Below are positions 24,408 to 60,173 of a stretch of 64,000 nt of DNA, piece by piece. Under the pieces are notes generated by a model that worked only from the letters and a program-made list of their open reading frames with translations, ran no database searches and was not told the origin of the DNA. The stretch's first letter is position 1, and the number at the start of each line of letters is the position of its first letter. This stretch comes from a virus (taxonomy: Duplodnaviria > Caudoviricetes), in the IMG/VR virus record IMGVR_UViG_3300005611_000002, positions 32,001 to 96,000 of that record; one strand, written 5' to 3'. Made by a program: the position numbers and the translations under genes.

Positions 24408-25237
24408 TTCTGATAATTCTTACAATTATCAAAATGATATCTTGTCATACTTGACGCACCACCTTTTTTATTGCAATGAGGGCACTCTTTTATGACTTGA
24501 GGCCCTTTGGGTTTTCTCATTTTTTCTTTTGTAGCATCACTTAATTTTCTTCCTTTTCTAATTTTGCTTAATTTTTGACGGACAGTATCGTCAAAAATTC
24601 TCCCTTTATTCGGGCCTGTCAATTCTCCACTTTTTATTCTAGGATCTTCTACTGAGACATAGTGATAGTTACCTTCGGAATCTTTCATTGTAGTCATGCC
24701 TTTAGTTATACCAGTAAGATTTTCATTTTTAATAAATTCTTCCCGTGTAACTTTAATTATATCATTTTTTTCTGTTTTAGCAATTACTATATTTTTTGCT
24801 TTGCATGATATTTTGCGCGATATTTCTTTTTTTCTTTCTCCTGACATATTGGCATGATATTCTAAAGTAGTTTTTGATTGTAACATTCTAAATTCTTTAT
24901 TGAGACTTTCATATAATCTACTGTTGATTTTTTTATTCTGATAGCTTCTTAATGAGTGGGCTGCAAATGTTATGCTATTTACAGTAGGAAAAGCTTTCCA
25001 TAATATCACATGAGCAATAAAATGCTGTCTGGCGGTTAAAACCGCGCAATTCCAAGGATACAATTTAAAAGATTCGTATTTAGGAAACATATCATTTGCT
25101 TTTGGGCATATGTGATGTTTTTCAGTATATCCTTCATAATCAACATTTTTTAGTTGACATTGCTCGATGAATGTTATATAACGGTTTATATAATGGGGAT
25201 TATGTGGTTTTGAAGACAATATGGTATAAATATCCAT
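24404..25237 (-). mobile_element. Antisense HNH homing endonuclease (NUMOD3-like repeats, C-terminal CPHC...HFDNCK)
   Basis: EKHHICPK...LTARQHFIAH; AT-rich. Confidence 0.88.
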
Positions 25238-25318
25238 TGCTGGAACTCCTTTCTTTAGGTGGTATAGTTCTAGGGTTAGTGGGTATTTGCCGTACCGCGA
25301 CTAACACTATTATTTATA
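25225..25318. ncRNA. Conserved HEG-leader structured element, copy 1
   Basis: Bounded by inverted TATAAATA boxes; stems CTGGAACT/AGTTCTAG and GTTAGT-G-GGTA/TACC-GCG-ACTAAC. Confidence 0.7.
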
Positions 25319-25334
25319 ATGGAGCATACATATA

Positions 25335-25886
25335 ATGTCAAAAGATATTTGGGTTTCTAGTGATTTTCATTTAAATCACTCAAACATTTTGAAATTCACT
25401 GATAGTAATACTGGAAAACCGATCCGACCTGAATTTTCATCCGTTCAAGAAATGAATGAAATTATAATACAAAGACACAATAGCTGTGTAAAACCTGGAG
25501 ACAAATTTTACACTCTTGGAGATGTGTTCTTTGGTGACAAGGAATGGTTCAAAAAAATGTGGCCTCGTCTGAATGGTAGCAAGCGTCTCATCGTTGGCAA
25601 CCACGACGATATCAAGTTTCTATCCTCTGGTGGATTCTTTGCAAAGGTCATGATGTGGCGCATGTTCCCTGAGTTTGGTTTGATGTTTAGCCATGTTCCG
25701 CTTCATGAAAGCAGTTTGATGCGAGGAGCAAAAGGTGACAAGCCGATGTTAAATGTGCACGGGCACACTCACAGTAATGGATCGCCAAAAGGCCCTTATA
25801 CTTCAGTCTGTGTGGAATTGAGAAATTATACCCCAGTCCACATTGAAGACTTGGCGGCGGAGGCTAAAAAATTAATTAATGTGTAG
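25335..25886 (+). CDS. Calcineurin-like metallophosphoesterase
   Basis: SDFH, LGDV, VGNHD, FSHVP, VHGHTH motifs. Confidence 0.92.
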   Translation: MSKDIWVSSDFHLNHSNILKFTDSNTGKPIRPEFSSVQEMNEIIIQRHNSCVKPGDKFYTLGDVFFGDKEWFKKMWPRLNGSKRLIVGNHDDIKFLSSGGFFAKVMMWRMFPEFGLMFSHVPLHESSLMRGAKGDKPMLNVHGHTHSNGSPKGPYTSVCVELRNYTPVHIEDLAAEAKKLINV

Positions 25887-26744
25887 TCTACCTCTGACCC
25901 ACCCTTCCTGAATAGATTGATATTTTTCTATCATTTTATTGACTTTACCGTTATTAATACAAATCTTTCCGGTTGTTCCCACGTGTTTTGGTTTCTTGCT
26001 GTATACCCTCCCTCTGGTCCATCCTTCGGGTATATGTTCTCCCTTAAACATTTTAGAAGTTTTTCCGTCATTGATCCAAACTGATTTTTTTGGTGAGTTT
26101 TTTGTCATACCTCTATACCAACCTTCAGGAATAGTTTCTTCGGGTTTTATTCTTTTATTTGTTTTTCCATTTGTGATGGTTATAGTTCCAGCATTATTCC
26201 CTCTTAATTCGCCAGTTTTAAATCTAACGTCGTCGCTAGAAACGTAATGACCGTTTCCGCTTCTATCTAAAGCAAATGTTTTTCCCTTCGTGTGCCCGCT
26301 AAGTTCTTTATTCTCGTCGAATTCTTTTTTGCTTACTCTGAATACTTTATTATCATGTTTTACACTTACTGTTCCGGACATTTGTTCAGAAACTATAACG
26401 GAATAAGCCACTTTTATAGATTCATATATTTTACTACTTTTTATTTCATTGTAATTACTCATAATACCAAATGCGCGAATCATTGACTCATTTTGATACA
26501 CTTTCCATAACATCATATGAGCAATAAAATGTTGTCTGGCGGTTAAAACTGCACAGTTCCACGGATAATTGCTAAATGAACTATACTCAGGAAACATATC
26601 CTTTGCTTTGGGACAAATGTGGTGTTTTTCAGTATAACCTTCATAATCAACATTTTTTAGTTGACAATGTTTGATAAATATGATATAACGGTTTAAATAA
26701 TGGGGATTATGTGGTTTTGAAGACAATATGGTATAAATATCCAT
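25872..26744 (-). mobile_element. Antisense HNH homing endonuclease with three (W/I)INxG...IPEGW repeats
   Basis: N-terminal ~80 aa nearly identical to the 24404-25237 product. Confidence 0.88.
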
Positions 26745-26825
26745 TGCTGGAACTCCTTTCTTTTAGGTTGCAAGTTCTAGAGTTAGTGGGTATTGACAGT
26801 ACCGCGACTAACATTTTTATTTATA
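26732..26825. ncRNA. Conserved HEG-leader structured element, copy 2
   Basis: Same architecture as copy 1. Confidence 0.7.
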
Positions 26826-26839
26826 AAAGTAAAAATTCG

Positions 26840-26956
26840 GGCCATATCCATCAGAACAAGTCTCCAAAGGGACCTTACCATTGTGTATGTGTAGAACAGA
26901 CGAACTACACTCCTGTTCACATCGAAGATCTAGCAAAAATTGCGAGAAAGATCTAA
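26840..26956 (+). pseudogene. Stranded original C-terminus of the metallophosphoesterase
   Basis: GHIHQNKSPKGPYHCVCVEQTNYTPVHIEDLAKIARKI*; 27/38 identical to the product of 25761-25886; stop overlaps the next ATG (TAATG). Confidence 0.92.
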
Positions 26957-27312
26957 TGGCAAATGTATTCGTATTCGGCTCTAATCTTGCTGGAAGGCAT
27001 GGTAAAGGTGCTGCGCTGTACGCCAAACAACACTACGGCGCAGTATATGGAGAGGGTATCGGTAGAACTGGTAACTCATACGCTATTCCAACTAAAGGTT
27101 ATCAATTGAATGTTCTTTCGTTAGAACGTATTCAAGACTTTGTCACAGAGTTCGTTCAACATACACGAGAGAATCCTGAAGATACTTTCCTGCTTACACC
27201 AATTGGAACTGGTTTGGCTGGTTATGATAAGACTGAGATATTCAAACTAATTCGTAACTGTGCACCACTTCCTTCTAATATCGTATTCACAAAGGAGTGG
27301 TTTAACTTATGA
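26956..27312 (+). CDS. Conserved phage protein, macro/A1pp-like fold candidate
   Basis: VFVFGSNLAGRHGKGAA...YAIPTK...TPIGTGLAG. Confidence 0.65.
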   Translation: MANVFVFGSNLAGRHGKGAALYAKQHYGAVYGEGIGRTGNSYAIPTKGYQLNVLSLERIQDFVTEFVQHTRENPEDTFLLTPIGTGLAGYDKTEIFKLIRNCAPLPSNIVFTKEWFNL

Positions 27313-30300
27313 GTAAGTACGAAGTAGCACCCGGTCTATGGATCGGTTCTGAGATCGGTGACATCAATCGAGAAATCAAGAGTCTTATGAAACGACTCGT
27401 AGATGGCGACGAGAGTGTCCTACCCGAGATCACTCGCCTTTCTCGTGAAAAAGAGAAACTGATGATGCCTAAGAGACTAAGGAGAGAAAAATGAACGTAG
27501 GTGAAGCAATTGAAGGACTATTCTACGCATTTGTCGTTGCGGTGACCGCTGCAATTTTTCTTGCAACTTATGTGCTCTCGCAGACAGTTTTTTCATTGAC
27601 ACCTTGGGATGTCTGTGTTAAGATGGAAACAGACGCTGCAAAAGTGCAGTGTATGGAGGCACATTATGACTAAAGAACAACTACTCATCAACCTTGAGTA
27701 CTGGGCAGACTGTTTGGAGAACCCTACCTACAACAATCTTGAAGTGGGCTTTAGACACACGCCTCTCTCCAAGGACGAGATCATACAACGATATAAAGAT
27801 GAATGCCGCACGACTCGAATCGCTATACTGAGAGTGATTGAGATGATAAACGAGGATGGAATAGAATAAAATGGAAATCAAAATTAAACCACAAAAGATT
27901 ATCCCTGCCAGCTATAGTGTTCGCTTTGATGAAGGCGGTGATTATACTGGATACATTGTTCAGCCTCAGCCATATGAAGATCGTCTCCGCCCTGACATCG
28001 AAGAATGGCTCAATGATAACGCTTTAGGTTGGAACGTAACTTTTGATCGTGGCGATTGGGGTGATGGTCCGGCTTTTGTAAAAATAAATTTCGAAACTGA
28101 AGCACAAGCAAGATCGTTTGCTGCTGAATTTACTAACATTCCCTGTCCTAATTCTCGCAGTCGTGGACATTGCCCGCATATGGGTTCTGCACTTAGTCTT
28201 ATTGATAGAGAGACTGGCGATGGTAAGGGCAAATGCTTACACTGTGATCACAGATTTCAAATCTTAACCAAAGATAATAGAGAAGATTTTCTAAAACATA
28301 ATATTGAGGATGACATAGAATGAACTGGGAACAATGGTTGTCTGCAAATCAATATGATGTTGACTTTGGTGATGATACTATCGATCTGATGCGACAAGCT
28401 TATGTTGCTGGTCTTAGAATGGCGCATGACTTACTTGATAATGCGGAACCAGAAGACTTTCATTGGTGCCGCCATGAAATTGAAAAACTGATAAAGGAAA
28501 GCGAATGAGATATGCCATATCATCTCCAGAGGAAACATGGGTGAAAGTGTGTTACAAATTCTTTGAAAGACACGATTTAACTTATTGGTATGTAAGGGAT
28601 AGAGAACAGGCTTTCCGTGAAATGATGAAGGACTCTAATGGTACTTTAGATCCAACTTGGTTAAGAAATAAGATAGACGAACTTTATAGGAGTGTTGGAA
28701 TATGAGCTACAGTAGAAACACGCAACTGTTCTGGGAACTGCTCGATCTGAGCGATGCTGAGCTTATGGTCGATAACGACATGTGCATTATCACATATAAC
28801 TTTACATACAATGATGATGAAGACCAAGAAAGTGAGAGCCAGGCGTTTGATTTTGGTCCTAAGGATCTTGCTTGGTTGTTCGGAGAGAAACTTGGCATTT
28901 ATATGACGGAGGTGTGAAATGAGTGAAAACGTAGGAAGCAGCGGAATTATGGTTCCGCTCTCGACAAAGATGAGTGAAGAAGAGCGCGAGGAAATTACTG
29001 AAGCTATTTGGGATAGCGGCAACAGTTTGGTTCAGATCAACTATGAAGGGACCATCGCGTATACAAATCATCGAAGCGACGGTTATGGTATCACATTTGG
29101 CGTAACCGCGGATAAGAACGACTTGGGTTATATTCGCACGATCATGGATCACTATGGCTTTGGCATCGTCGAAGAACAGGCTCGACCGTATTCTTGCTAT
29201 TGGTACAACGGAACTGATTCGGATATGGATATGTTGGAACTTGAAGATTTTCTTGTAAGAACGAAACAAAGTAGTTGACAAATGCTCGCGAATAATATAG
29301 TATGATAATATATTCGGTGGATAAAGGAGAATCACCATGGATGCTACTGTTACTCGCCTCGCACAAGAGACGGACTTCGTTGGTTATGCGATCGTTGATT
29401 GGGACAGCTACTTCGGTAAAACTACTTGCCCGAACAAAGCTGCTGCGATGTGCTTGGAACGGTATCGTACTGGTGGCGAAGAGCTTGGTCAGTTCATCAA
29501 GTGCTACTCGATTGGTACTCTTGGTGAATATTCCGATGCTCCTGGCAAGCGTGTAGTAGAAGAATATGACTGGGATCGCGCGCTTCGTGAACTTATGGGT
29601 TGACATTTGTTTTGAAATGGTTTATACTGATTCTATAAGGAATGGAGATATACAATGATCAATCCTGCTACTCGCCCGCAAGATAAACTTAATGAATTCA
29701 CGGGAAGGTTGCTTGGCACTTATCCTCCTACTGTTCGTCTTCGCAATGGAACACTTGTTCAACCTGAATATAAGCCTGCAGAAGATGAATACTGCACAGA
29801 TGCTTTCTATGCTGAAGACTATCGCTACTGCTGGAACTTGGATGGTACTAGTGTAACTCGCAGTGATTATGATATGATGGAGATTGTTCGCAATGACTGA
29901 CTATACAGAAGCCGCCCGCTGCGAAGCCACTGTTCGTCTTGCTGATGGAAGTGAATGGACGATCCACCTTGTTCCTGCTGATACGGATGGTTGGAACGTT
30001 CCTGTGATCCGTGCGTATGACTACACCGACGATACTCAAATTTGGAACACTGATGGCACTGCGCTTTCGGCTGATGCTGACATTGTGGAGATTATGGAAT
30101 GACTAAGTATGTGACAACTCATTTACCTGAAGAAGAGATTGACCGCTTACGCCTTAAAGCATTTGCAAGTAATGACCCTGAAGATAAACTGGCGTATTAC
30201 AAGGCAACCTCACTCTACTTCCAAGAACGCCATGAACGTGCTATGAATAGGGAGGCTAAAAATGACTGATCGCGTTTTTGAAGATGCTCGCAGCTGGGAA

Positions 30301-31030
30301 GTTTCAGACGGCGGTCGTTGTGTTGAGGTCTATATGTTTGAAGCTGGTGATGTGATGATCACCGCAAACGAAGACGCAGGTTGGGATAGTCAACGAGCCA
30401 GCTTCACTATGACTCGTGAAGAAGCAACACTGCTGAAAGAATTCCTGATCCGGAAAGGATACTGAGATGACTAAAGAACAACTTATCGAGATGTTGAATG
30501 GAAACCTGTGGGTCTCAGGTCAAACCGACAAGTCTCAAACCGTAATGGGCGTTGAACGTGCTGCAGAGAAGATTGCAATTAAGTTCTTTTTGATGGAAGA
30601 AGAAATCAAACGACTACGGGAACATAACACTGAAATGGGCTGGCGTCTGAACCCAGATCGTATGGGTGGACAGTTCACAGAAGAAGAAAAGAATAGGACA
30701 GGATGGATATGACTCTCGATCGTAACTGGCTTGAAGATCGTGTAGAACCTCTCGCTCGTGAGCTGGCAGCAGAGAAGATGGGTTTGGTGAAGGACTGCCT
30801 TGGTGAGAATCTACCATACGATCTCTGGAGTCAGTGTATTCCAGATGCTCGTAAATTCTTGGGGTTGGAGTGATGGATTATCGTGTTATTACTGCTACAG
30901 GCAAATACCAACTTCAGGAAGAAGTTATAGAAATGATCAAACAGGGTTGGAAGCCTCAGGGTGGTATACTCTATACTCTTCACCTCGGCGGTGTTCACGA
31001 AACCTGGGCTCAAGCAATGATGAAAGATGA
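27309..31030 (+). other. Cluster of about 15 small early hypothetical genes, including tandem paralogues 29655-29900 and 29893-30102
   Basis: Overlapping start/stop codons; promoters at 29275 and 29600. Confidence 0.6.
29600..29644 (+). promoter_or_regulatory. Early promoter cassette (type B)
   Basis: TTGACATTTGTTTTGAAATGGTTTATACTGATTCTATAAGGAATG; copy with one mismatch at 36424; partial copy at 53426. Confidence 0.85.
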
Positions 31031-31407
31031 ATGAGTTCCGAGTCCTCGTCTGCGGAGGTCGAACATATGAAGACCGAACTCGCTTCTTTTCTTTCATGGA
31101 TAGAGTCCTTGAGACAATCGGGGGAACTGGAGAAACTCCAAGACGAGATGTGGTCATTATTCATGGATCAGCCCGAGGTGCAGACGCACTTGCAGACGAT
31201 TATGGACGTGAGCGAGGACTTAGAGTTATACGCTATCCCGCAGACTGGAACACCCACAAAAAAGCAGCAGGACCAATCCGAAACAGATTAATGTTGACAA
31301 ATGGGCAACCACATGTTATTATAGCATTTAAAGGCGGTAATGGTACTGCCGATATGATTCGACAAGGCAAGAGAGCTGGTGTTCCAGTCTATGAGGTGAA
31401 AGAATGA
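31027..31407 (+). CDS. SLOG/YspA-like (DUF2493) protein
   Basis: RVLVCGGR...IIHGSARGADALA...AGPIRN...GGNGTADM. Confidence 0.85.
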   Translation: MNEFRVLVCGGRTYEDRTRFFSFMDRVLETIGGTGETPRRDVVIIHGSARGADALADDYGRERGLRVIRYPADWNTHKKAAGPIRNRLMLTNGQPHVIIAFKGGNGTADMIRQGKRAGVPVYEVKE

Positions 31408-32147
31408 ATAGACAACAATACGACGCTTTGAATAAAGAACAAAAAGCGATTGCTACGGAAGCTTACATTGATGGATTTCTAGCTTGCATAGAACAAGTAA
31501 AATCCATCACGGTCAGAGTAGGAGATCAGGATGTCGACAAAACGTTTCGAGTTAATCGAGACATGATTACTGAAAACCTGCATGATACCTATGAGAAACT
31601 TTTACTACAAAAGTTGGTAAAATGATGTATATGGCATGGCTGTGTTACCCACACGATTATGATCCCGAATATGAAATTGAAGTAGAAACTAAGATTGTAT
31701 TTAAAGAACCCGATGGTTGGGAATACGCCAAGATTATTCCAATTCAATTTAGTGTTCTCCATCAATGGTCTGATAAAGACAAGGGGCTTTATAAATGAGT
31801 TATAAAGTATTTCTATTTGAAAACGACCATTGGCTCTACTGTAGTGATGTGACGCTGGAAGATGGTGTTTATCACGGTTGGGTAGAGAACGGTGCTTGGC
31901 ATCTAATGTATGACAGCAAACTCAAAGGATGGTTTGCTTGTCATAGCAGAGCCGCAGCAGACAGTCTTGTGGCAGTTACCAAAGGTTATAAGGAACTTGT
32001 TTGGGCTTGCGATCCTGCTCGAGCACTGTTTGACTATAACAGTGTGATTGAGGACGCTAAAAAACGCTATGCTGCTGGCGAACCTGCTGACTTTGAACTT
32101 AAACCAGAACCTGTATATGAAAATGATGACGAGGAGATTCCTTTCTA

Positions 32148-32606
32148 ATGAAACTATGGATTGATTGTGAATTTAACGAATTTGGGGGTGACCTCATTTC
32201 AATGGCTCTTGTCGCAGAAGACGGGCAAGAGTTTTACGAAGTGTTGAATCTTGAGAATGATGAGAAATATGGTTCTTGGGTATACTTCAATGTTGTTCCG
32301 TGGTTGAACAAAGACCCGATCACCAAGCAAGAGTTTCAGCAAAAACTCTGGATGTTCATTAATCAATGGGAAGAAGTCCATATTGTTGCTGACTGGCCTG
32401 ACGACATTCGGTATTTCTGTGCAGCTCTCATTACAGGTCCTGGTCAAGCACTTAACACTCCGCTGAAACTGACTATGCAGATCGATCGCGAACTGAATAC
32501 GCTCGACAGCAAAATTCTACACAATGCTCTTGAAGATGCTCGGAGTATCAAGCGTAGTTGGGAGCGGCGCGAAAAAGAAATGATTGGATATGGAGTAAAA
32601 GAATGA
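32148..32606 (+). CDS. DEDDh 3'-5' exonuclease (Rv2179c-like)
   Basis: WIDCEF...LISMALV...ADWPDD...HNALEDA. Confidence 0.8.
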   Translation: MKLWIDCEFNEFGGDLISMALVAEDGQEFYEVLNLENDEKYGSWVYFNVVPWLNKDPITKQEFQQKLWMFINQWEEVHIVADWPDDIRYFCAALITGPGQALNTPLKLTMQIDRELNTLDSKILHNALEDARSIKRSWERREKEMIGYGVKE

Positions 32607-32718
32607 AACACAACGGAAAAGATTTTTACTGTCCCAAAAGCGGAATGTGTATGTGTGCTGTTGCGGGTAAGAAGAAGCCAAGTAAAGAGTGCGTTGGAAT
32701 TGCTAAAGGGAAAAAGAA

Positions 32719-36662: not shown

Positions 36663-37253
36663 ATGAACTACACTTTCCCTGAAATCCGCACTATTGAAGA
36701 TGTGCTTCCGCATATCGAAGGTCGTGAAGAATTCATCGTAGCAGAGCGTGAAGGATATACCGTCGTAAATTACGTTGTGGCGATGGCTGACACCTTTGAT
36801 ATGACTGGCCCTGATGATCTTGGCGGTGCTATTCGCCGTGAGTGCAGAGGTTTGATCTTCGACCGTGACGGAAACATCATGAGTCGTCCGTTTCATAAGT
36901 TCTTCAATGTGAACGAGCGTGATGAAACTCAGTCTCATGTGATCGATATGTTGCAGCCGCATGTAATCATGGAAAAGATGGATGGATCTATGATTCGCCC
37001 TATCTTGGTTGACGGTTACTTGCGGCTTGCTACGAAAATGGGTGTGACTAACGTTGCTATGGATGCAGAGGCTTTTATGGCAAAGAATACCAAGTATAAG
37101 GATTTCTGCATATGGTGTTTGGATGAGGGGTTAACACCTATTTTTGAATGGACTAGTCCATTCAATCAAATCGTTCTTCCATATGAGAACGATATGTTAA
37201 CCCTTCTTGCTGTTAGGGAAAATATAACTGGTCGCTATCTCAGCATCAAATAA
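36663..37253 (+). CDS. rnlA: RNA ligase 1, N-terminal part (motifs I, III, IIIa)
   Basis: ECRGLIF..SRPFHKFFN; EKMDGS; TPIFEW; LLAVRENITGRY; matches the T4 Rnl1 layout. Confidence 0.88.
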   Translation: MNYTFPEIRTIEDVLPHIEGREEFIVAEREGYTVVNYVVAMADTFDMTGPDDLGGAIRRECRGLIFDRDGNIMSRPFHKFFNVNERDETQSHVIDMLQPHVIMEKMDGSMIRPILVDGYLRLATKMGVTNVAMDAEAFMAKNTKYKDFCIWCLDEGLTPIFEWTSPFNQIVLPYENDMLTLLAVRENITGRYLSIK

Positions 37254-37911
37254 TATCATATTTTTCTAGGACAGACTTCTCAAAGGTCTGTCCATTTTTC
37301 ATTTGGTTTATTATTCTAGTTCTAGTTCTTTTATATACCACATCAGGTGACTTCAAATAAGACACATCAGTATTATAGTTTCCATTTGCTTTTCTAGTTT
37401 CAACTCGTTTTTTGATAGATTCTTTAGTGTTTGCTGCGGACATATCGTTGTTGTATGTGCCCAATTTTTTACGAGTTTCTACTCTCTTTTGTATTTCTTC
37501 CTCTGTCCACCCACCTTTAGCTTTTCTAACATTCCAACTCTGTTTACCATTTTCTGTACATTTATCAATGTTATTGTTTAGATATGTTGAAATCTTGTTT
37601 TTCGTTTCTTCTGTGTGTGGTATACCTTCTCTACTTGGTGGAGCATTTCCGCCTAGTGTTAAATTATAACATCTCGGATCATTTACAAGATCATTTGTAA
37701 CAATCTCTGCTTCTTTTTCAAGTGCAGATTCTCTAGTATCAAAAAACTCTAGTATTTCTTTTGTAAACGTTTCTTTGCCATACTTTTTTATGGACTCTGT
37801 AATCGCTATGCCAGAACCCATATATCCATCAGACAAATCTGATGTGCTGTGAACACCTATATAAAATTTCAAATTGCTGTTGTTAGTGACTTTGTATAAA
37901 TAGTGATACAT
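37246..37911 (-). mobile_element. Antisense GIY-YIG (Seg-like) homing endonuclease
   Basis: YLYKVTN...FYIGVH...YMGSG...CYNL. Confidence 0.88.
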
Positions 37912-37989
37912 GCTGGAACTTCCTTTCTTGTTCTAGAGTAGTTGGGGAGACTCTCACATATCCCGCGAACTACATTACTATTTATACAA
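37892..37989. ncRNA. Conserved HEG-leader structured element, copy 3
   Basis: 13-bp perfect inverted ends TTGTATAAATAGT/ACTATTTATACAA; stems CTGGAAC/GTTCTAG and GTAGTT-G-GGGA/TCCC-GCG-AACTAC. Confidence 0.7.
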
Positions 37990-38052
37990 GATAGTAGTTG
38001 ACATTCCACAAAAACCAATATAATATGAACTTAGATGATAAGGAGTGATTCT

Positions 38053-38613
38053 ATGCTACTGAAAAAGATTTGTGAGTTTGATATCCCTACCGTGGATACC
38101 ATATTGCCATTTACTAAGATTGAATCTCTTTTAGAATTTACACGTGACCTTGAAAACGTTGAAGGCTTCGTCGTTGCTTTCGAAGATGGTCACAGAATAA
38201 AAATCAAAGCAGATCAATATGTTCGTATTCACAAGACTATTGACCGTATCACGTTTGATCGTAACATCGTTGACCTAATCATCAACGAAGAAGTTGACGA
38301 TATTATTCCGATGCTGCCGACTGTTCAAGTAGACCGCATTCGTGACTTCGAAACTCGTTTCTGGGAAGCGTTTGTAGCAACTGAGGACCGTCTTGCTGTA
38401 TATCAAACCGGTTGCGCACTGGTCTACAAGAATGACCGCAAGCGTGTTGCTTTGGAATTCATTCCGACTCTGGAGCACAAAGCAGATGCTTCGTTCATCT
38501 TTCGTATGTTGGACGGTCACGAAGTTCGTGATTTGATGATAGATCACATTCGTAAAAACATTAGTTCCAATACTCGTTGGGATGCTTGTGCAAAGTGGAT
38601 GGGAATGTGTTGA
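38053..38613 (+). CDS. rnlA: RNA ligase 1, C-terminal part (motifs IV, V and C-domain)
   Basis: EGFVVAFEDGHRIKIKADQYVRIH; own promoter (TTGACA at 37998) and AAGGAG RBS. Confidence 0.85.
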   Translation: MLLKKICEFDIPTVDTILPFTKIESLLEFTRDLENVEGFVVAFEDGHRIKIKADQYVRIHKTIDRITFDRNIVDLIINEEVDDIIPMLPTVQVDRIRDFETRFWEAFVATEDRLAVYQTGCALVYKNDRKRVALEFIPTLEHKADASFIFRMLDGHEVRDLMIDHIRKNISSNTRWDACAKWMGMC

Positions 38614-49617: not shown

Positions 49618-49650
49618 ATAAAAACAAGCAGATCTATATGATGTATTGAT

Positions 49651-49677: not shown

Positions 49678-49691
49678 GTAAAGGAGAATCA

Positions 49692-49925: not shown

Positions 49926-50004
49926 TTCAATGTTGTGCTTTCACAAATAACCAATAAACGGCTTCTTAACAATTTCGACTGAGGTCGTTTTAGAAGGAGG
50001 TTTC

Positions 50005-51285: not shown

Positions 51286-51593
51286 TGCCAGCGGTAGCAG
51301 TATGCACAGTAGACAAAATATCAACCGGTCATCCATGCACAGTGGTTGCTGGCATAAAAGGAGCTTTGCAGGATAAAGTAACGATAGGCGGAAAACCGGT
51401 TGCAATCGTAGGAGACGTTATAGCACCGCATACGATCCTTGTTCCTATTCCTGCATGCATACCTCACTCTGCTGTAGTAAATGCTGGTTCAAGTAAAGTT
51501 TCCATTGGAGGAATTCCAGTTGCTAGAATAGGAGACTCGGCTGATATGGGCGCAATTATTTCAGGATCATCAAAAATATTTGCTGGCGGCTAA
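51285..51593 (+). CDS. PAAR spike-tip protein (T4 gp5.4-like)
   Basis: PVAIVGD, GSSKVSIGGIPVARIGD, GSSKIFAG. Confidence 0.9.
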   Translation: MPAVAVCTVDKISTGHPCTVVAGIKGALQDKVTIGGKPVAIVGDVIAPHTILVPIPACIPHSAVVNAGSSKVSIGGIPVARIGDSADMGAIISGSSKIFAGG

Positions 51594-51607
51594 CTAAGGA
51601 TTATATT

Positions 51608-52279
51608 ATGTTTCATCATGTAGACCATGGAATTGTTTTACCGAAGATCACTCGTAAGAATACTGAAGTAGGAAGAAAATACTTCACGCCAGAAGGTAAC
51701 GCATATCCTTCTATCACAACTGTGTTGTCTATTCTCGGAAAGGACGCGATCCAAGAATGGCGCAATCGAGTAGGAGAGGAAGAAGCAAATCGTGTTTCTG
51801 CATTTGCTTCGAAGCGAGGAACTGCAGTTCATAAGATTGCAGAAGACTATCTTAACAACGAACCAGATTACAAGAAAGGACACATGCCAACAAGCGTGGT
51901 GTCCTTCAATGGTATAAAGTCGATACTTGATGAGAGACTAAACAACATCTGGATGCAAGAGACTTTCCTGTATAGTGATAAGCTCAAGTGCGCAGGTCAA
52001 GTTGATTGTATTGCAGAATTTGATGGTGAACTCTCGATTATCGATTTCAAAACGTCTCGTAAGGAAAAGAAGAGATCTTGGATTAGAGGTTATGAAATGC
52101 AAACTTGCTTTTACGCCGCGGCGTTTTTAGAACGTACAGGCATTGCCATAAAAAATTATGCAATAATTATAACAGTAGATGAAGGAAATTCTCAAGTTTT
52201 CACTGGAAATACTTATGAGCCCTTTCATGATTTCTTATCATGTCGTCAAAAGTACGAAGAATATGTAAGATCTCTTTGA
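51608..52279 (+). CDS. PD-(D/E)XK exonuclease (Cas4/RecB-like) with a replaced C-terminus
   Basis: YPSITTVL; RGTAVH; AGQVDC; IIDFKTS; Q...Y. Confidence 0.88.
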   Translation: MFHHVDHGIVLPKITRKNTEVGRKYFTPEGNAYPSITTVLSILGKDAIQEWRNRVGEEEANRVSAFASKRGTAVHKIAEDYLNNEPDYKKGHMPTSVVSFNGIKSILDERLNNIWMQETFLYSDKLKCAGQVDCIAEFDGELSIIDFKTSRKEKKRSWIRGYEMQTCFYAAAFLERTGIAIKNYAIIITVDEGNSQVFTGNTYEPFHDFLSCRQKYEEYVRSL

Positions 52280-53153
52280 GCCATTTTGTATTTTTTTGAT
52301 ACCAACTCCGACCTAATGTGATACGATATTTTGCTAAATAAATTTTAATCTCCATCACTTCTTTTCTTTTTGATTTTAATTTTCTCGTTTGAATATAACA
52401 CCCAGTCGTTATTTCCGGTGCTTCCTTTGTGTATTTCACTTTACTAATATCTGTTTTAAGTTGATCAATAAGATTTCTTTTTTCTATTATCTCTATACTA
52501 ATTTCTTTACAATTATCAAAATGGTGTCTAGACATTGCAGATGCGGATCTTGCCTTTGCTTTTTTCCCGCAGTGTGGGCATATTATATCTGGTTTTGAAT
52601 CTATAGTTTGCTTTCTTTTTTCTATTTGTTTTTTTCTAGTATTTTCTGAAATTTTAGATTGTCCGTTTCTAAATTTTTCACATCTTTTTTCATATTCTTC
52701 TTTAGTATAAGATTTCCAAATTTTTTTGTGTGTTTTTCGTGACTTTTCTTTAGATTTTTCTGATATAACTCTTCCAGGATATGATCTAGATTTACTAGAT
52801 TTACTTATTAGTTCGCTTCTTCTTCTTTGTACGTCTTCAGGTAACTCACTTAGTAATGGAAACCCTCTATTGTGAGTTATGTTCAACCATTTATCTGATT
52901 TTGATACTTTTAATCTTCGAAGTACACATTCTTCCCAAATTAAAGCATCTTTATGATTATTAAATTTTTTGCGAATTTGTATTACGTCTGGTTCGCCATT
53001 GATTTCTCTAAATTCCTTTACGTGTTTTGATGAAGTAAAGTATTTGACCCACAGATCAGACGGATGACAATTTTTTGCATAGCGAACACCATAATACCAT
53101 TTATCATATTTTGTCCAACCGATAAGATACGTGTAGGGAGTATAAATAGACAT
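52200..53153 (-). mobile_element. Antisense GIY-YIG-like homing endonuclease with CPHC...HFDNCK motif
   Basis: YTYLIGW...WYYGVR...YFTSSK...WE..VL...WLN; AT-rich. Confidence 0.82.
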
Positions 53154-53232
53154 GAGCTGCGTTCCTTATTTTTAAATGCGTTAACGTAGAGTAGTTGGGA
53201 CTGGTACTCCGCGAACTACATTAATATTTATA
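53141..53232. ncRNA. Conserved HEG-leader structured element, copy 4
   Basis: Compensatory stem CTGCGTT/AACGTAG; GTAGTT-G-GGA/TCC-GCG-AACTAC; inverted TATAAATA ends. Confidence 0.7.
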
Positions 53233-53237
53233 ATTTT

Positions 53238-53429
53238 GGTTACTTCGTCCAAGCAAGCTTCTACGCCGCCGCATTTCTTGAAAGGACTGGAATTGCTATC
53301 AAGCAAGGTGTAATCTTGATCACTGTCGATGATGGTGAACCTCAAGTCTTCAAGATCAATACCTATGACTACCTCGAGCACTTTCTTGAAGTGCGAAAAA
53401 AGTTCAAACAAATGTACGAAGGGGGTTGA
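53238..53429 (+). pseudogene. Stranded original C-terminus of the exonuclease
   Basis: GYFVQASFYAAAFLERTGIAIK...MYEGG*; 63 aa, 34/63 identical to the product of 52088-52279; no start codon. Confidence 0.92.
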
Positions 53430-53482
53430 CATTTGTTTTGAAATGGTTTAGAATCATATTATAAGTTAGGAAAGGAAAACTT

Positions 53483-54388
53483 ATGACGATGATTCGGATT
53501 ACCAAGCGCTTCTATGATGATCACATCGAGCGCGATCTCGAAGCCCCTGCAATTGTTCGCGAGTCAAAGCGTTACTATTGGATCGACACCTCAGATGAAA
53601 ATTTCGATGAGCTTCACGCGGATGCAATCTTCTACCGCGGTATGTGGCTCGATGGCGCTTATGACGCTTACCTCAAGCCGATCTGTATGTCGGCTCACCA
53701 GTTGATTACTGCGTACGAAAGGGGTTGACAAACACCCCGAATCAGTATAGTATCATAATATCAAATCAAACCGAAAGGAACTACACTATGGGTACTCATG
53801 CGATGATCGGCATCTGGAATTCCGAAGACGGCTCGGTTGAAGCCACTTATGTTCACTACGACGGCTACGTGGATGGCGTTGGAAATGCGCTGATCCACTT
53901 TTTCAATACTCAAGAAAGCGCATCGGCTGTTGCCAATGTTGGCTATCTTTCTTCTCTGAGTGCTGATCTTGAAACCTCCATCGAGGAATCAGTTCACCAG
54001 GAACCTACGGTTCCCTATGAGTCTGTCGAGCAGTTCATGAAGAACGGCTACGATTACGCAGGTGCGGAATATCTTTATCTTTGGGACGGTGAAGCGTGGT
54101 TTGTAGCTTCTCGGTATGGAGAACAGCGCTTCACTGATGTTATTACTGTTTTGAGTGAAAAAGATGCAGCTTAACACGAACCGGATACTCACCAAATTCA
54201 TTCGAACCGAGAGCCATCATTTTGTAGGCACAGTCTGGCCCTTTCGAGGCTGTCAAGTCGAAATGCACGATGATGGCTTTTCGTGTACTTGTAAAAAGCG
54301 CATGACGTATAAATGCAATCATATCAAATCCGTAGAACTTGGTATTCTTGGCGTAGGACTAAAACAATATGAACTTATTCGTACTTGA
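53483..54388 (+). other. Early hypothetical genes (53483-53728, 53788-54174, ~54164-54388)
   Basis: Promoter cassettes at 53426 and 53725; YVHYDGY motif in 53788-54174. Confidence 0.6.
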
Positions 54389-54944
54389 TAAACACCCAGT
54401 CAAAGCAGCACAACTTCAGTGCAATCGCCATATTGTGAAGATGGTGGTGGAAAGCGCGCAAATGCTTTCCACTGCTCATCGTATGCTCGACGGCACCGAA
54501 GAGCGCCGATCTTCTAAATCTGGTAAAACCCTGTCGCGGTACTGGGCACTGCCAGATGATCGAGAAGATGTTCTTTACAAAGCTGTTCACATGCATCATC
54601 CGTGCACGGTTTGGACAATGCAATCAAATAACAACTACACGTGGCACTGGGTTCACTTTGCAGCTCTCTGTGATGAATACCAATATCGTTACGGTAAGGT
54701 ACACAAAACAGACACTTTGCTACGAGATCGACTGAAAGAACTTCCGCGAAACATTCCCGTTGGGCCTTTCACACCACAGCCTCTTGCAATGAAATCAAAC
54801 CCTGAGTGCATGTTTCCAAATGATGTAGTCAAGTCGTATCGAGCTTTCTATCAGACTAAGCAACACCGCTTCAAGATGGTGTGGTCAAAAAGATCTGTAC
54901 CAGAATGGTTTGAAATGGTTGACAAATGTGAAGAATCAGTATAG
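54369..54944 (+). CDS. Pyrimidine-dimer DNA glycosylase-like protein
   Basis: MNLFVLD..P..AAQ..C.RHIVKM..ESAQMLSTAH; HHPCTVW; LCDEY..RYGKVH. Confidence 0.75.
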   Translation: MNLFVLDKHPVKAAQLQCNRHIVKMVVESAQMLSTAHRMLDGTEERRSSKSGKTLSRYWALPDDREDVLYKAVHMHHPCTVWTMQSNNNYTWHWVHFAALCDEYQYRYGKVHKTDTLLRDRLKELPRNIPVGPFTPQPLAMKSNPECMFPNDVVKSYRAFYQTKQHRFKMVWSKRSVPEWFEMVDKCEESV

Positions 54945-54976
54945 TATCATAATAGGTAAAACGAAAGGAACCTACA

Positions 54977-56367
54977 ATGTTTACACCTCAGTTCGTAATC
55001 TTTGTCGAAACTACTACTGGCCAGATTATTCGCGCTTTTACGTGGTGTCGCGATGAAGCTTCTGGTATCGCGCGCGCCCGGCGTGATGCAGTTGAATTTG
55101 GACACACTCCAGCGCGTATCTGGACTGAACGCGTCATTGTAGCAAACCAAAACTAAGGAGACTCAAATGATGGAACATTATGAATTCGCAAAGCAGCTTC
55201 GGAATCTTCTTCGTCGTGCAGATCGTTTTGGCTATGATCTTCAAACACTGAAAGAAGAAGTCCTCTACGTTGCTGAGCTTCAGGAAAAGCAAGCTGAGCG
55301 CATTGAGCTAAAGATGATTGCCGATGCTCAAAATGACCCTAGCAATCCTCGGTATGATTACGGCTTGGCGTGAGTAGATATTTAGTGATTGATAAAGAGA
55401 TGGGTGTCTTTCTAGGTACCTATCTCAAGTTTGCTCTCTTTGCAGCAAATGATGGCTTTGATGTAGTCAAAGCTTTCAGCTTCGAGAGTGAAGATTCTGC
55501 TCACAAATTTGTGGCAATGAATACAAGTCTCGAAGAAGATGACTACTTTGTAGCTCCAATCAAGACGAAAGATAAGTATGTGAGTATTATTGACGTGATT
55601 AAAGCTGGTTACGGAGAGCATACACATAACATGATGAATAATTTGCAAATGATTTCATATTCTGAACATTAGCAGTTGACAAACGAGTAGAATCAGTATA
55701 GTATCAAAATATACGGTATGAAAGGAAACATCATGACTTACACCTTCGACGAGAACATTGTTTCTGATCTTCACAAAGATGCTCGTGGCTTCCGTCCTAG
55801 TGAATACTTCTGGGAAGAATGGACTCAGTGTGGTGACGATACCCGTCAGGCAATGTGGGACTCTCTGATCGAGGAACTCAATGAAACAATGGATCGTGAG
55901 CGTCGAGCCGAAGCTCGTGCTGCTCTTGCTCTGACTGAGCGTCTCGAAAAAATGTACGAACTCGGTGCCACTTCTGAAGTTCAAGCTCTTCAGTGGATCA
56001 TGGAAGCAGAAGAGTTCGAAGACTATGATCTTCGTTACGGCGCAGACTACTTCTGCTACCACTTCGGTCTCAGCTACAGTCTAAAAAATGAGTTTCCCAT
56101 CCAGGAAGCTATCAACGAAATGCTCTCGGAGGTTGTATAATGAACGCAAATGGAATTATTCCCGTGGAAAGTAGCGAATGGCCTACTCATGGAAGCCCTC
56201 AAGATCGTGGTTCTGCTGATGCTTACTATGGTCGACGCTTTGATCCTCACTGGTGGCCCGAAGGTACTGGTAAAGGAACTCGTGTAGAAAAAGAAGACAT
56301 GTCTGCTAATCAGATCAAGCAGTATGAATATGGCTACATGAATGAAGAAGATCGGAAAGAATGGTAA
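54977..56367 (+). other. Early hypothetical genes (54977-55156, 55167-55373, 55370-55672, 55733-56140, 56140-56367)
   Basis: Promoter cassettes at 54919 and 55676; RBSs. Confidence 0.6.
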
Positions 56368-56439
56368 AAACCTGTTGACAAATAGACAGAATCATTATAT
56401 TATCTAAATACCGAAACAAAACTGAAAAGGAACTACATC

Positions 56440-57390
56440 ATGGCACACGAACTTGAAATCATCAACGGTGAAGCTCAAATGGCGTATCGCGCTTCGCAGG
56501 GCAAGCCGTGGCACGGTCTTGGTACTCCGGTATCGGACGACATGACTCCGCTTCAAATGATGGAAGCTGCAGGTCTTAACTGGAAAGTCGAAAAAGTCGA
56601 TACATTCTTCGAAGCAGGAGGCCAAAAATTTCCGACTGGTCGGCAAGCACTTATTCGCTCTTCGGATCATAAAATCTTGTCTGAAGTGGGCAAGGGTTGG
56701 AACCCAGTCCAAAATCGCGAAGCTTTTGAATTCTTTACAGACTTCGTTGCTAACGGCGACATGATGATGGATACCGCTGGTTCTCTCAAAGACGGTCGGA
56801 TTGTTTGGGCTTTGGCTGATGTCAAGGATGGCTTTACACTCTTTGGCGGTGACGAAGTTCGCGGTTATCTTTTGTTTTCAAATCCTCATATCTACGGTAA
56901 CTCGATCGACGTCAAGTTTGTTCTCGAACGCGTTGTTTGTAACAACACACTGACGATGGCTCTCAACGAAAAGGGTCAGCCTTCGGTTCGAGTCAACCAC
57001 CGCGCTGAATTTGATGCGGAACGCGTAAAGGAAATCCTTGGTCTGTCTCACCGTCGCGTGGAAAACTTCAAGGAAGCTGCAGAGTTTCTTGGTTCTCGTA
57101 ACTACCAGGAGCAGGATCTGACTCAGTACTTCGGTCAAGTCTTTGGTACTTCAAATAAGGAAGACAAGGATCTGTCTCGTACTGCTGAGCGCGCGGTGGA
57201 ACTCGTTGAGACCTCTCCAGGTGCGAACTTCAAGCCTGGTTCCTGGTGGAACATCTATAATGCGGTGACTTATCTTACTGACCACGAGCTCGGTCGTTCT
57301 GACGACAACCGCATGACTTCGGCTTGGTTTGGCGGTAACGCAAAGCGCAAGACTGAAGCACTGAACCTTGCACTTGACATGGCGGCCTAA
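56440..57390 (+). CDS. DUF932 family phage/plasmid protein
   Basis: PWHGLG; AAGLNWKV; PVQNREAFEFF; TAGSLKDGR; RVVCNNTL; NAVTYLTDH. Confidence 0.88.
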   Translation: MAHELEIINGEAQMAYRASQGKPWHGLGTPVSDDMTPLQMMEAAGLNWKVEKVDTFFEAGGQKFPTGRQALIRSSDHKILSEVGKGWNPVQNREAFEFFTDFVANGDMMMDTAGSLKDGRIVWALADVKDGFTLFGGDEVRGYLLFSNPHIYGNSIDVKFVLERVVCNNTLTMALNEKGQPSVRVNHRAEFDAERVKEILGLSHRRVENFKEAAEFLGSRNYQEQDLTQYFGQVFGTSNKEDKDLSRTAERAVELVETSPGANFKPGSWWNIYNAVTYLTDHELGRSDDNRMTSAWFGGNAKRKTEALNLALDMAA

Positions 57391-57412
57391 GGGCCGTTAT
57401 TCTGGAGAAATC

Positions 57413-57763
57413 ATGACCTCAGTAGGATATACAACGGTAGCGCTAATACACCTAGGTGGTGTATTAGCTTTTCAACAAACCGGCATTGCTTGGATTTTAC
57501 TTATACCTGTAGCTCATGCCGCGTTTGCAACTTTTATTTTTGTATTTGCAGTTTCTGCGCTTTTAGGAACTTCGCACGAAAAAATAAAGTTCGAGCCAGA
57601 AAAAGATCATATCGGAATTCGTTTCTTATCGCAGTTTGCATCTTTATTGACCGCATATCAAGTTTATTTGCTTGGATATGGATTACTGGCAGGTATCATG
57701 ATTATGACTGCAATTTGCTTGATTCTTACTTTGGTATACATTGCAGCAGAAAAGGAAGCATGA
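57413..57763 (+). CDS. Membrane protein
   Basis: Several hydrophobic segments; GGAG RBS. Confidence 0.6.
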   Translation: MTSVGYTTVALIHLGGVLAFQQTGIAWILLIPVAHAAFATFIFVFAVSALLGTSHEKIKFEPEKDHIGIRFLSQFASLLTAYQVYLLGYGLLAGIMIMTAICLILTLVYIAAEKEA

Positions 57764-57764
57764 T

Positions 57765-58190
57765 TTGAAAATACTCATTATGGGCTTGCCTGGTTCTGGT
57801 AAGACTTGGTTGGCAGAACGTCTTCAGAAACGACTTGAATGTGCTTGGTATAACGCTGATGAAATTCGTCGTATGGCTAACGATTGGGAATTTGGTGAAG
57901 AAGCTCGAATTCGTCAAGCACGGCGCATGCGAAATCTTGCGAACTACGAAAAGGGCGAGGGTCGCACTGTAATTTGTGATTTTGTCTGTCCGACGGAGCT
58001 CACTCGATATATCTTCGAGGCTGACTATACAGTTTGGATGGATACTATCAAAGAAGGTCGCTTCGAAGACACAAACAAAATATTTGAAGCTCCTTTACAC
58101 TACAATTATCATATTTCTAAGTGGTTTGATAATACTGATGAGACTCTAGTAAACGCAATTGAAAGACACATAAGGATAAAAGATGTTTGA
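57765..58190 (+). CDS. Adenylylsulfate-kinase-like P-loop protein
   Basis: MGLPGSGKT; NADEIR; R.RQARRM; DFVCP; FEAP; TTG start. Confidence 0.75.
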   Translation: MKILIMGLPGSGKTWLAERLQKRLECAWYNADEIRRMANDWEFGEEARIRQARRMRNLANYEKGEGRTVICDFVCPTELTRYIFEADYTVWMDTIKEGRFEDTNKIFEAPLHYNYHISKWFDNTDETLVNAIERHIRIKDV

Positions 58191-58593
58191 TTGGAAAAAA
58201 CCCACGGTGCAAATGCTAGGACGATGGCAGCCATGGCATGACGGACACACAGCTCTTTTCAAAAAAGCGCTTGAAACTACAGGTCAAGTTTGTATCATGA
58301 TTCGAGATGTCTATAACTTTGATGGCGACGCCGGCGCAGGACGAACCGCAAAGCAAGATGATAATCCCTTTGGTGAGATTGATGTAATCAAGAATATCGA
58401 AGAAGCACTTCGAAAAGAAGGCTACGAAAACGGACATCAGTATCTAATTCTGTGTGTACCTAATATTGTTGACATCAGTTATGGACGAGGAGTTGGTTAC
58501 ACATTTACGGAACACGATCTCGGTGAAGATATACATCAGATTAGTGCAACAAAAATTCGCGCAAAAATGAGAGAAGAAGGAAAACTTTCATGA
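58183..58593 (+). CDS. Cytidylyltransferase-like (HxGH) nucleotidyltransferase
   Basis: LGRWQPWHDGH; YGRGVGY; ISATKIR. Confidence 0.8.
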   Translation: MFDWKKPTVQMLGRWQPWHDGHTALFKKALETTGQVCIMIRDVYNFDGDAGAGRTAKQDDNPFGEIDVIKNIEEALRKEGYENGHQYLILCVPNIVDISYGRGVGYTFTEHDLGEDIHQISATKIRAKMREEGKLS

Positions 58594-58634
58594 ACTCGAT
58601 GGGTGACTTGAAATTTACAACAGCAGGAGACTAT

Positions 58635-58883
58635 ATGATGAATGATGAATCTTACGCAGTAACAGCAGAAGAACTTCGACAGTTTATCGAGCGATATGAA
58701 CGTCTAGAAACAGAAAAGAAGGACATCGCGGATCAGCAGAAGGAAGTGATGTCTGAAGCCAAAGGCCGCGGATATGACACAAAGGCTATCCGTAAGATTA
58801 TTGCGATGCGCAAACGTGATCGTGATGATATTGCTAACGAGGAAGCTGTAGTCGAAATGTATAAAGAAGCACTAGGTATGTAA
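58635..58883 (+). CDS. gapR: GapR (DUF2312/UPF0335) nucleoid-associated protein
   Basis: AEELRQFIERYERLETEKKDIADQQKEVMSEAKGRGYDTKAIRKIIAMRK...YKEALGM. Confidence 0.92.
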   Translation: MMNDESYAVTAEELRQFIERYERLETEKKDIADQQKEVMSEAKGRGYDTKAIRKIIAMRKRDRDDIANEEAVVEMYKEALGM

Positions 58884-59233
58884 AATGAAACAAAAAGATC
58901 TACAGATTGTATGCGAAAATATTATTGCAAGATATCCACCGCACCGAAATTTCACGTCTGCAGATGTCGCGTATGACGCAGGATACGTTTTTCCAGATTA
59001 TCAATACGCTGATGTTATATCTGGCGTCGTGAGTAAAATCAAGCAAAAGCAAACACTCGCAAAACACGGTAAAAAAATTATACTTGTTGGATATAGCCCA
59101 AAATATGGAAGGAATCAAAAGCGACCAACGAATTTGTTAAGAGTGATAGACTGTTGATCCAGAATTGACATTCTAATCTATTGGTAGGTTACCTTATAAA
59201 GAAGTACAACGTCAACTGGTTGACTCTCAGAAT

Positions 59234-59261
59234 AAAAAAAGGCGGGCATAAAGCCCGCCTT
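59234..59261 (-). terminator. Intrinsic terminator after the HEG
   Basis: Minus strand GGCGGGC-TTTAT-GCCCGCC followed by T7. Confidence 0.85.
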
Positions 59262-59270
59262 AGCACTCTT

Positions 59271-60095
59271 CTAGCACTCTTCTTTCTTGTGTTTACAGTT
59301 ATCGAAATGATATCTTTGACCACCTTTCCCTTGAAACCTACAATGCGGGCACGTAAATGGCTTGCGGATTTTTGCAGACTTTTTCATATTTTCTTTATGT
59401 TCACCAGATTTGGGCACACCTTTTAGAGTTTTAGAAATGTTATTCTTAGTTTCATCTGAATGTACCCTACCTTTCATAGAAGTAGATATTTTTTCAGGAT
59501 CAGGTTTTTTCCTGTGTTTCATTTTTTCTTTATAACCAGGTCTTTGCCATATCTCCTTTCCAATCTCAGATCTTTTCTGTCTTTGTTCTTCGGTCAAATT
59601 CATTGGAACATCCTTCTTTGCTTTCGAGATAGATGCGCATTTTTTACCCTTATTCCAAGGAATATTACCTTTCTTACAAGGATTATTTTCAGACATTTCT
59701 TTACTCATTATCTTCTTTCGCTCAGCGCCCATGTCACTATCCCAAAACTGTTTCTTCAAAACAGATGCTGCTTTACCCGACAAACCAATAGCACGTTTTT
59801 TCACATTATAATATCTAATAGTTTCGTTACGTTTATTTTCTCCCAAACACAACTCTTCATCTTTGATCATGTCAAGATACTTTTGTTCTAGTGCAAATAA
59901 CTCTTTGGGATCATTACCGTAATAAAACTCAAGTATTTTCCTTCTGAAATCATGAGGTCTTTTCTTGATTGCGCTATCCATGAAACCAGTTGATGAAGTA
60001 TATCCATCATCCAATGAACCCATATGGGATCCAATACAAAACCACTTTCTTTTGCGGTCATACCAAATATATACGAAACCTGAATAAATATCCAT
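59271..60095 (-). mobile_element. GIY-YIG (Seg-like) homing endonuclease downstream of gp23
   Basis: GFVYIW...CIGSHMG...YTSS...EQKYL...YYN; NUMOD3-like repeats; CPHC...HFDNCK. Confidence 0.85.
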
Positions 60096-60173
60096 TGCTG
60101 GAACTCCTTTCTGTAAATGTTTAGTTCTAGAGTAGGTGGGACTGGTACTCCGCGACCTACATTTTTATTTATT
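60083..60173. ncRNA. Conserved HEG-leader structured element, copy 5
   Basis: Ends AATAAATA/TATTTATT; stems CTGGAACT/AGTTCTAG and GTAGGT-G-GGA/TCC-GCG-ACCTAC. Confidence 0.7.

Follow-up and report, generated by a model that had tools for sequence, protein, structure and literature searches.

A cassette that heads five homing endonuclease genes in the genome of an uncultured T4-type phage is presented here as a candidate for a widespread, previously undescribed structured RNA. The window that was analyzed is a stretch of 64,000 nucleotides (bases 32001-96000) of the IMG/VR record IMGVR_UViG_3300005611_000002, which comprises 194,645 bp with direct terminal repeats. Each copy of the cassette contains an outer box of the late promoter type on the strand of the endonuclease gene, an inner box on the opposite strand within the first codons, and two stems, A and B, enclosed between the two boxes together with the ribosome site and the start codon. 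Sequence comparison gives good support to the module, to its structure and to the strand on which it is folded. Our proposal, which we hold at even chances, is that the facing late promoters yield both the endonuclease mRNA and a complementary antisense RNA of ~65-70 nt that limits its translation. More tentatively, the copies may form an undescribed RNA family acting as a self-contained antisense governor, which would move with homing endonuclease genes of at least three unrelated folds and settle in either orientation; the two late RNAs would share stem B, and the antisense RNAs of different copies might cross-act on each other's messages.

Among the selfish elements of large phages, homing endonucleases are the principal ones. 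To our knowledge, the control of the harm they cause is known for a few T-even cases only, all of which are hairpins on the mRNA strand. If the proposal is true, it would add a second, RNA-against-RNA way of restraining phage homing endonucleases, as well as a new family of structured RNAs comprising more than 150 members, and a helix of a rare kind, seemingly constrained on both strands. The cassette would also account for the ready-made late signals of unrelated nuclease genes and for the similarity of their first codons.

The cassette family and its fold

The family was collected in two pattern scans of IMG/VR, each of which gave more than 117 stretches among the matches listed, and at least 157 distinct copies were extracted. 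An alignment of 150 of the 157 copies in antisense orientation was used to build a covariance model (R1). With this model, eight copies were found in the phage's own genome, three of them outside the window, and five further large phage records, one of them a complete genome of 360 kb, contained 1 to 13 copies each. By their N-termini, the genes headed by the cassette form at least 11 groups, and the nucleases they encode comprise several GIY-YIG types as well as HNH, HNH_3, TnsA-like PD-(D/E)xK and DUF559/Vsr-like types. Comparison across the family thus supports a portable module common to unrelated nuclease families. This had been proposed in the initial annotation of the window, and the scale now lies far above the five genes on which that proposal was built.

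The annotation had also stated that the element is not a named RNA family. A search of the window with Rfam 15 returned no match at the gathering score, and copies 1 and 2 gave no match even at E-values up to 10. No copy was found by R1 in eight cultured T4-type phages (phiM12, phiN3, DLP6, S-SSM7, Melnitz, S-PM2, T4, and Aeh1), blastn against 50,697 phage records gave only an 18-nt chance match, and megablast of the region against phages gave none.

Both stems were recovered when RNAalifold was applied to the alignment, with both sides changed at 12 of the 19 pairs. The named structure was paired in 97.3% of the cells, compared to 84.5% in shuffles, and contained 318 double-change cells, compared to 65; when the partners were slid out of register, pairing amounted to 34-49%. 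Since the search patterns constrained parts of stem B while leaving the pairing of stem A free, stem A provides the cleaner test of covariation, and it is represented by 58 distinct haplotypes with compensatory changes. Within stem B, the middle base of a three-base bulge pairs with the opposite single base, as G-C in 149 copies and as A-U in one. The covariation of both stems, first noticed on the five copies of the window and now seen in the 150-copy alignment, argues strongly that the stem fold is real.

The same data bear on whether the cassette has any function of its own, or whether endonuclease 5' regions merely resemble each other by common descent or gene conversion. Copies 1 and 2, which are closely paralogous, alone among the copies of the window remain alike deeper into the coding region, as shared ancestry would predict. 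However, similarity between copies otherwise begins at the outer late box and stops sharply at the inner box, a few codons past the start, the cassette is conserved over unrelated protein families and three reading frames, and the 58 stem A haplotypes with their compensatory changes are hard to reconcile with mere descent. We consider an element devoid of function highly improbable.

The strand on which the fold sits is indicated by the wobble pairs of stem A. A total of 233 cells carry a G.U pair on the antisense strand only, corresponding to A.C on the mRNA, whereas only 5 carry a sense-only wobble; these 5 are all confined to the top of the stem, where the alignment is poor, with none in the five basal pairs. 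The third pair, at which the asymmetry had originally been pointed out, is G.U in 150 of 150 aligned copies, and the bias extends to the fourth and fifth pairs, which contribute 20 and 49 more antisense wobbles, respectively, and none of the opposite kind. Antisense wobbles beyond the invariant pair are spread over 30 of the 58 haplotypes and therefore do not stem from one inherited event. In each of the 157 copies, the antisense strand is predicted to form the more stable stem A region, with means of -6.9 and -3.0 kcal/mol for the antisense and the sense strand, respectively. For the five window copies, plus-strand RNA forms both stems in the minimum-energy and centroid folds, whereas stem A on the mRNA strand, which contains one or two A.C mismatches, is weak or lost and is absent from most centroid folds. 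These results provide good support for stem A being folded on the strand opposite to that of the endonuclease gene.

Stem B is equally stable on both strands. Its wobbles (18 vs. 14 for the two strands) are nearly all found in the uncertain top pair, and its variable pairs are almost free of them. Since a wobble on one strand is a mismatch on the other, the wobble-poor stem B resembles a helix that is needed on both transcripts, and we infer that it is used on both.

Strand asymmetry taken alone would also fit single-stranded DNA, as G.T is the best-tolerated mismatch in DNA hairpins. The inverted repeats might accordingly act at the DNA level, as a single-stranded or cruciform site of recombination or mobility similar to PeSL cassettes or integron attC, and the occurrence of truncated copies, the number of copies per genome (up to 13) and the association with at least three unrelated nuclease folds would agree with this. 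However, no recombinase is associated with the element, which is located at the 5' end of the gene only and never flanks it, and its boundaries match the promoter, the ribosome site and the start codon and thus follow a logic of expression. A DNA-level element is, in our judgment, quite improbable.

Facing late promoter boxes and the proposed antisense RNA

The outer box has the consensus NATAAATA on the gene strand and ends 5 nt ahead of stem B. Related phages use NATAAATA as a late promoter (PMC2984593), and T4 late promoters consist of an 8-bp box at positions -13 to -6 with nothing else needed (PMC2988020). When the T4 geometry is applied to the cassette, the predicted outer start is the G that opens stem B, and the predicted inner start is the conserved G just ahead of stem A. 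With an outer start at the first base of stem B, both stems would lie in the late transcript.

In the phage's own genome, TATAAATA occurs at 54 sites, nearly all of which either lie 22-50 nt 5' of a co-oriented gene or are cassette boxes, and the genes preceded by such a site include those of the major capsid protein gp23 and the scaffold protein. About 7 orphan sites were observed, compared to about 29 expected from the base composition of this genome. Judged by this distribution, TATAAATA is clearly under selection as a signal genome-wide, and a perfect box within the first codons of a gene is therefore unlikely to be silent.

The inner box is such a box. It matches the late-promoter core in complement, is located in codons 2-5 on the opposite strand and was present in 102 of the 110 copies of the first scan. 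It occurs in all three reading frames and nevertheless lies 6 nt from stem A in 118 of 153 copies, as the spacers on either side of the ATG compensate each other (1+2, 2+1 or 3+0). Among the 269 called open reading frames (ORFs) of the phage genome, the inner motif was found within the first 30 nt of six, all of them cassette genes, and of none of the other 263; together with two cassette genes besides these six, the box is present at all eight cassette genes. These observations support the earlier suggestion that the inner box is a nucleotide-level signal, located at promoter distance from stem A. A reading of the box as codons for a conserved Met-x-Ile-Tyr was rejected, as three frames are used and the box is also found in HNH, TnsA-like and DUF559 genes.

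From the computed conservation, covariation, strand asymmetry and box placement, we infer the start sites, the termination, the RNA-RNA pairing and its effect as follows. Transcription from the outer box would produce the endonuclease mRNA, beginning with the G that opens stem B, while transcription from the inner box would produce the antisense RNA, beginning with the conserved G before stem A. This RNA would comprise stem A, which carries the anti-Shine-Dalgarno sequence in its loop, followed by stem B and a U-rich tail complementary to the outer promoter. It would be fully complementary to the mRNA leader of roughly 65 nt, and pairing of the two would lower the translation or the stability of the nuclease message. 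The duplex might block ribosome entry or open the leader to cleavage, so that nuclease output would be held at a set level, and the facing promoters may interfere with each other as well. On the mRNA, the A.C mismatches would weaken stem A and leave the ribosome site open, with stem B as a 5'-terminal hairpin.

Several observations weigh against this scheme. The inner box could be a pairing partner of the outer box, as judged from folding predictions. The U-rich tail after stem B is not a canonical terminator, and a simple scan called none in copies 1 and 2. At copy 1, the ribosome site of the next plus-strand gene starts 3 nt past the outer box, and some antisense transcripts must consequently read on. 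The invariant third pair of stem A could reflect other constraints on conserved flanking bases. Finally, the folding energies of the five window copies are unremarkable compared to shuffles (z from -0.2 to -2.3), and because these z-scores are modest, the case for the fold rests on covariation and not on stability. The U-richness of the tail is the same in colinear and divergent contexts and with any gap to the next gene.

Pairing between the boxes is the basis of another explanation, in which read-through transcripts of the sense strand would pair the promoter box with the inner box and thereby close a three-way junction over the start, while transcripts from the late promoter, lacking the 5' arm, would be translated. 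The two boxes are exact complements, and the closing helix between them is part of the minimum-energy fold of the isolated element in 118 of the 157 sense sequences and in 136 of the 157 antisense sequences. In copy 3, the repeat extends to 13 bp, and G is the inner partner in 3 of the 11 copies whose outer box starts with C, compared to about 3% otherwise. Moreover, I-TevI, segB, mobE, e and soc are established cases of this mechanism (PMC2988022), and the phage itself has a textbook example at C1:21750-21805. However, stem A forms weakly on the sense strand, its wobbles are of the antisense kind, and both stems lie 3' of the predicted late start, so they would not be bypassed. Only 27% of the copies have co-oriented genes on both sides for read-through, yet the box is conserved everywhere, and the next layer of the putative helix shows no covariation. 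Such a sense-strand bypass therefore appears unlikely to us.

The initial annotation had further stated that both boxes change together in copy 5. This is true, as AATAAATA is present there twice, but it does not extend to the wider family, in which the first bases of the two boxes do not covary beyond a weak association; none was seen at the second layer. A joint change of the boxes is predicted by a promoter pair and by a pairing helix alike and cannot tell the two models apart.

The genomic context of the cassette is relevant to a further explanation. Among the 102 copies for which both neighbours are visible, 58 are inverted to both, like the copies of the window, and 28 are colinear with both. 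Next to inverted copies, the following host gene begins a median of 49 nt past the cassette. The outer box of colinear copies often contains the upstream gene's stop codon. The inner box may thus be an outward-facing promoter that restores late transcription of a host gene cut off by the inverted insertion, with the fold as its 5' leader, for example a stabilizing hairpin. The position of the ribosome site beyond copy 1 implies that transcripts of the next gene must pass through the cassette, no further TATAAATA lies upstream of the host genes that follow copies 1-3, and in T4 promoters of host genes are embedded in segG, segA, segE, mobB and mobC (PMC2988022). On the other hand, conservation of the inner box amounts to 80% with a co-oriented upstream gene, where a backward promoter would be useless, and to 73% with a divergent upstream neighbour, and more than a quarter of the copies (28 of 102) are colinear. 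This explanation also leaves the display of the anti-Shine-Dalgarno sequence in a covarying stem and the avoidance of wobbles on both strands of stem B unexplained. As the main role of the inner box, we regard an outward promoter as doubtful, although outward-promoter and antisense roles can coexist.

Relation to known control systems

Among known kinds of elements, the cassette is best classed with cis-antisense control and with endonuclease control cassettes. In IS10 RNA-OUT/RNA-IN and in type I toxin-antitoxin systems, a promoter inside the 5' end of a harmful or mobile-element gene gives rise to a short structured antisense RNA with a recognition loop. The cassette likewise has, at the sequence level, a putative opposite-strand promoter in the 5' end of its target, consisting of a late box at a fixed distance in three frames, and it has a conserved antisense fold whose predicted exposed loop is the complement of the ribosome site. 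As for a defined 3' end, a U-rich tail follows stem B and no canonical terminator was called. The sequence and the fold differ from those of the IS10-type regulators, and the cassette, whose RNA is predicted, has phage late boxes on both strands and is associated with many unrelated nucleases.

The bypass hairpins of T-even phages and Aeh1, which are found at I-TevI, I-TevII, I-TevIII, segB and mobE (review PMC2988022), share with the cassette a late promoter directly 5' of the endonuclease gene, an RNA structure near the ribosome site and the limitation of a harmful nuclease. In these hairpins, the promoter is located inside the hairpin, late transcripts lose the inhibitory arm, and it is the mRNA strand that acts. 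In contrast, the stems of the cassette lie past the predicted start, stem A is on the opposite strand, and a second, facing box is conserved. The promoter does not lie within an inhibitory hairpin, as only the hypothetical box-to-box helix would be bypassed, and the mRNA strand shows no stable structure over the ribosome site (mean -3.0 kcal/mol, with A.C mismatches).

About 10 kb before the window, at C1:21740-22640, the phage genome encodes an HNH_3-type endonuclease preceded by a 15-16-bp inverted repeat, with TATAAATA in the loop and the 3' arm abutting the ribosome site. Behind the gene lies a gp41-1-like C-intein motif. The presence of this textbook bypass hairpin in the same genome indicates that two control designs coexist and are distinct.

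No description of the cassette was found in the literature, the nearest account being that of Dassa et al. (2009). These authors describe metagenomic endonuclease genes in 'fractured genes' with 5' UTR (untranslated region) hairpins containing a T4-type late promoter (PMC2677866). The loci resemble ours in being environmental and phage-like and in having free-standing Vsr-like and GIY-YIG endonucleases, a TATAAATA box and two pairing motifs. The cassette also shares their settings, as copy L046 is located in a split-intein locus and another copy heads a DUF559/Vsr-like gene. The hairpin is read there as a translational mask on the sense strand, and the text reports no antisense promoter, strand asymmetry or two-stem family. 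Part of the cassette, namely stem B, may therefore have been seen earlier by Dassa et al.

A single antisense RNA has been reported opposite a phage endonuclease gene, namely CfrI of the T4-like cyanophage S-PM2; it is co-expressed with the homing endonuclease gene and thought to be regulatory (Millard et al., 2010; PMC2984593). CfrI differs from the predicted RNA in its length of about 225 nt and in linking the endonuclease gene to psbA, and R1 finds no cassette in S-PM2. The PeSL cassettes of T4-type phages combine a promoter and a stem-loop motif, are repeated within a genome and are associated with modular gene shuffling (PMC2839356, PMC4122927). They have early-type promoters and flank variable genes of many kinds. 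Our cassette lacks the early sigma-70-type promoter and the terminator-like stem-loop beside variable genes; it has late boxes, includes the ribosome site and the start codon, and heads nuclease genes only.

The five copies and their surroundings

The major capsid protein of the phage is a gp23, and its scaffold protein is T4-like. The nearest relative of this gp23 is that of Sinorhizobium phage phiM12 (67.7% identity), with cyanophages next. Most genes of the window are located on the plus strand, while the five cassette endonuclease genes are on the minus strand, as are the late structural genes. The five elements were located in the initial annotation, and direct reading, a 17-base core pattern and R1 agree on their coordinates. 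The pattern matches just these five copies in the window and nothing in 100 shuffles, and R1 recovers them as C1:57225-57319, 58732-58826, 69895-69987, 85141-85233 and 92083-92174.

Copy 1 (25225-25318, minus strand) comprises the inner box at 25225-25232 (plus strand), stem A at 25240-25273, stem B at 25275-25305 and the outer late box at 25311-25318 (minus strand). The corresponding parts of copy 2 (26732-26825, minus strand) are the inner box at 26732-26739 (plus), stem A at 26747-26780, stem B at 26782-26812 and the outer box at 26818-26825 (minus). The genes that follow, both on the minus strand, are paralogues of 277 aa (gene 1, 24404-25237; PHROG 655 and the HNH PHROG 12434) and 290 aa (gene 2, 25872-26744; PHROG 655/12434, HNH). 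Inside the N-terminal coding parts of the two genes, an early-promoter-like sequence TTGACA-N17-TATAAC is present on the plus strand (25153-25183 and 26660-26690, respectively). These sequences, which were not called by a simple promoter scan, face through the cassette to the next plus-strand gene.

Copy 3 (37895-37986, minus strand) has its inner box at 37895-37902 (plus), stem A at 37913-37936, stem B at 37938-37973 and the outer box at 37979-37986 (minus), and its ends form a 13-bp perfect inverted repeat. It heads gene 3 (37246-37911, minus strand), a GIY-YIG endonuclease of 221 aa that matches both the Pfam GIY-YIG family and PHROG 314 and is inserted in inverted orientation within an RNA ligase gene. 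Directly before the inverted gene 3, an ORF at 36663-37253 matches the T4 RNA ligase 1 family, which spans 227 positions, over the first 152 only. Beyond gene 3 lies a second ORF (38035-38613), preceded by a TTGACA-type promoter-like sequence. The RNA ligase gene (36663-38613) thus appears, from these alignments, to have been split by the endonuclease insertion.

Copy 4 (53141-53232, minus strand) has its inner box at 53141-53148 (plus), stem A with four compensatory pairs at 53157-53189, stem B at 53191-53219 and the outer box at 53225-53232 (minus). Gene 4 (52200-53153, minus strand; 317 aa) matches PHROG 37840 in its N-terminus, as does gene 3, and PHROG 655 in its C-terminus. Copy 5 (60083-60173, minus strand), located 3' of gp23 on the same strand, has its boxes at 60083-60090 (plus) and 60166-60173 (minus), stem A at 60098-60130 and stem B at 60132-60160. 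It precedes gene 5 (59271-60095, minus strand; 274 aa), which gives weak matches to PHROG 314/655.

The initial annotation had counted two HNH and three GIY-YIG-type genes. The HNH type stands for genes 1 and 2 and the GIY-YIG type for gene 3, while genes 4 and 5 have PHROG matches of the same kind that are weaker than those of genes 1-3. The details it gave of individual copies were all found to be present: the compensatory stem A of copy 4, the third stem A pair as G.U on the antisense strand and A.C on the mRNA, the G/GCG internal loop in stem B, the inverted repeat at the ends of copy 3 and the retention of the inner box despite differing N-terminal peptides, with two reading frames used among the five copies.

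Just 5' of copy 5 and 3' of gp23, a canonical GC-rich hairpin with a T run is found on the minus strand at 60225-60250, an example of an ordinary terminator in this phage, unlike the tail after stem B. Outside the window, two TATAAATA boxes lie on opposite strands, 10 nt apart, at C1:149506-149531, and their predicted starts are adjacent and point apart. This crossed, back-to-back pair of late promoters separates a block of minus-strand genes from a cassette endonuclease gene on the plus strand.

In the wider family, four truncated copies (L084, L088:1136, L094, and L042) have kept the outer box and stem B without stem A, the start codon or the inner box, and they are likely remnants left by loss of the nuclease gene. 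The cassette core was also found on five contigs (L182-L186) assigned to metagenome-assembled genomes, two of Haliscomenobacter and one each of Mucilaginibacter, an uncultured Bacteroidetes and Terrimicrobiaceae. All five probably belong to phages and were mis-binned, and their binning may hint at Bacteroidota hosts.

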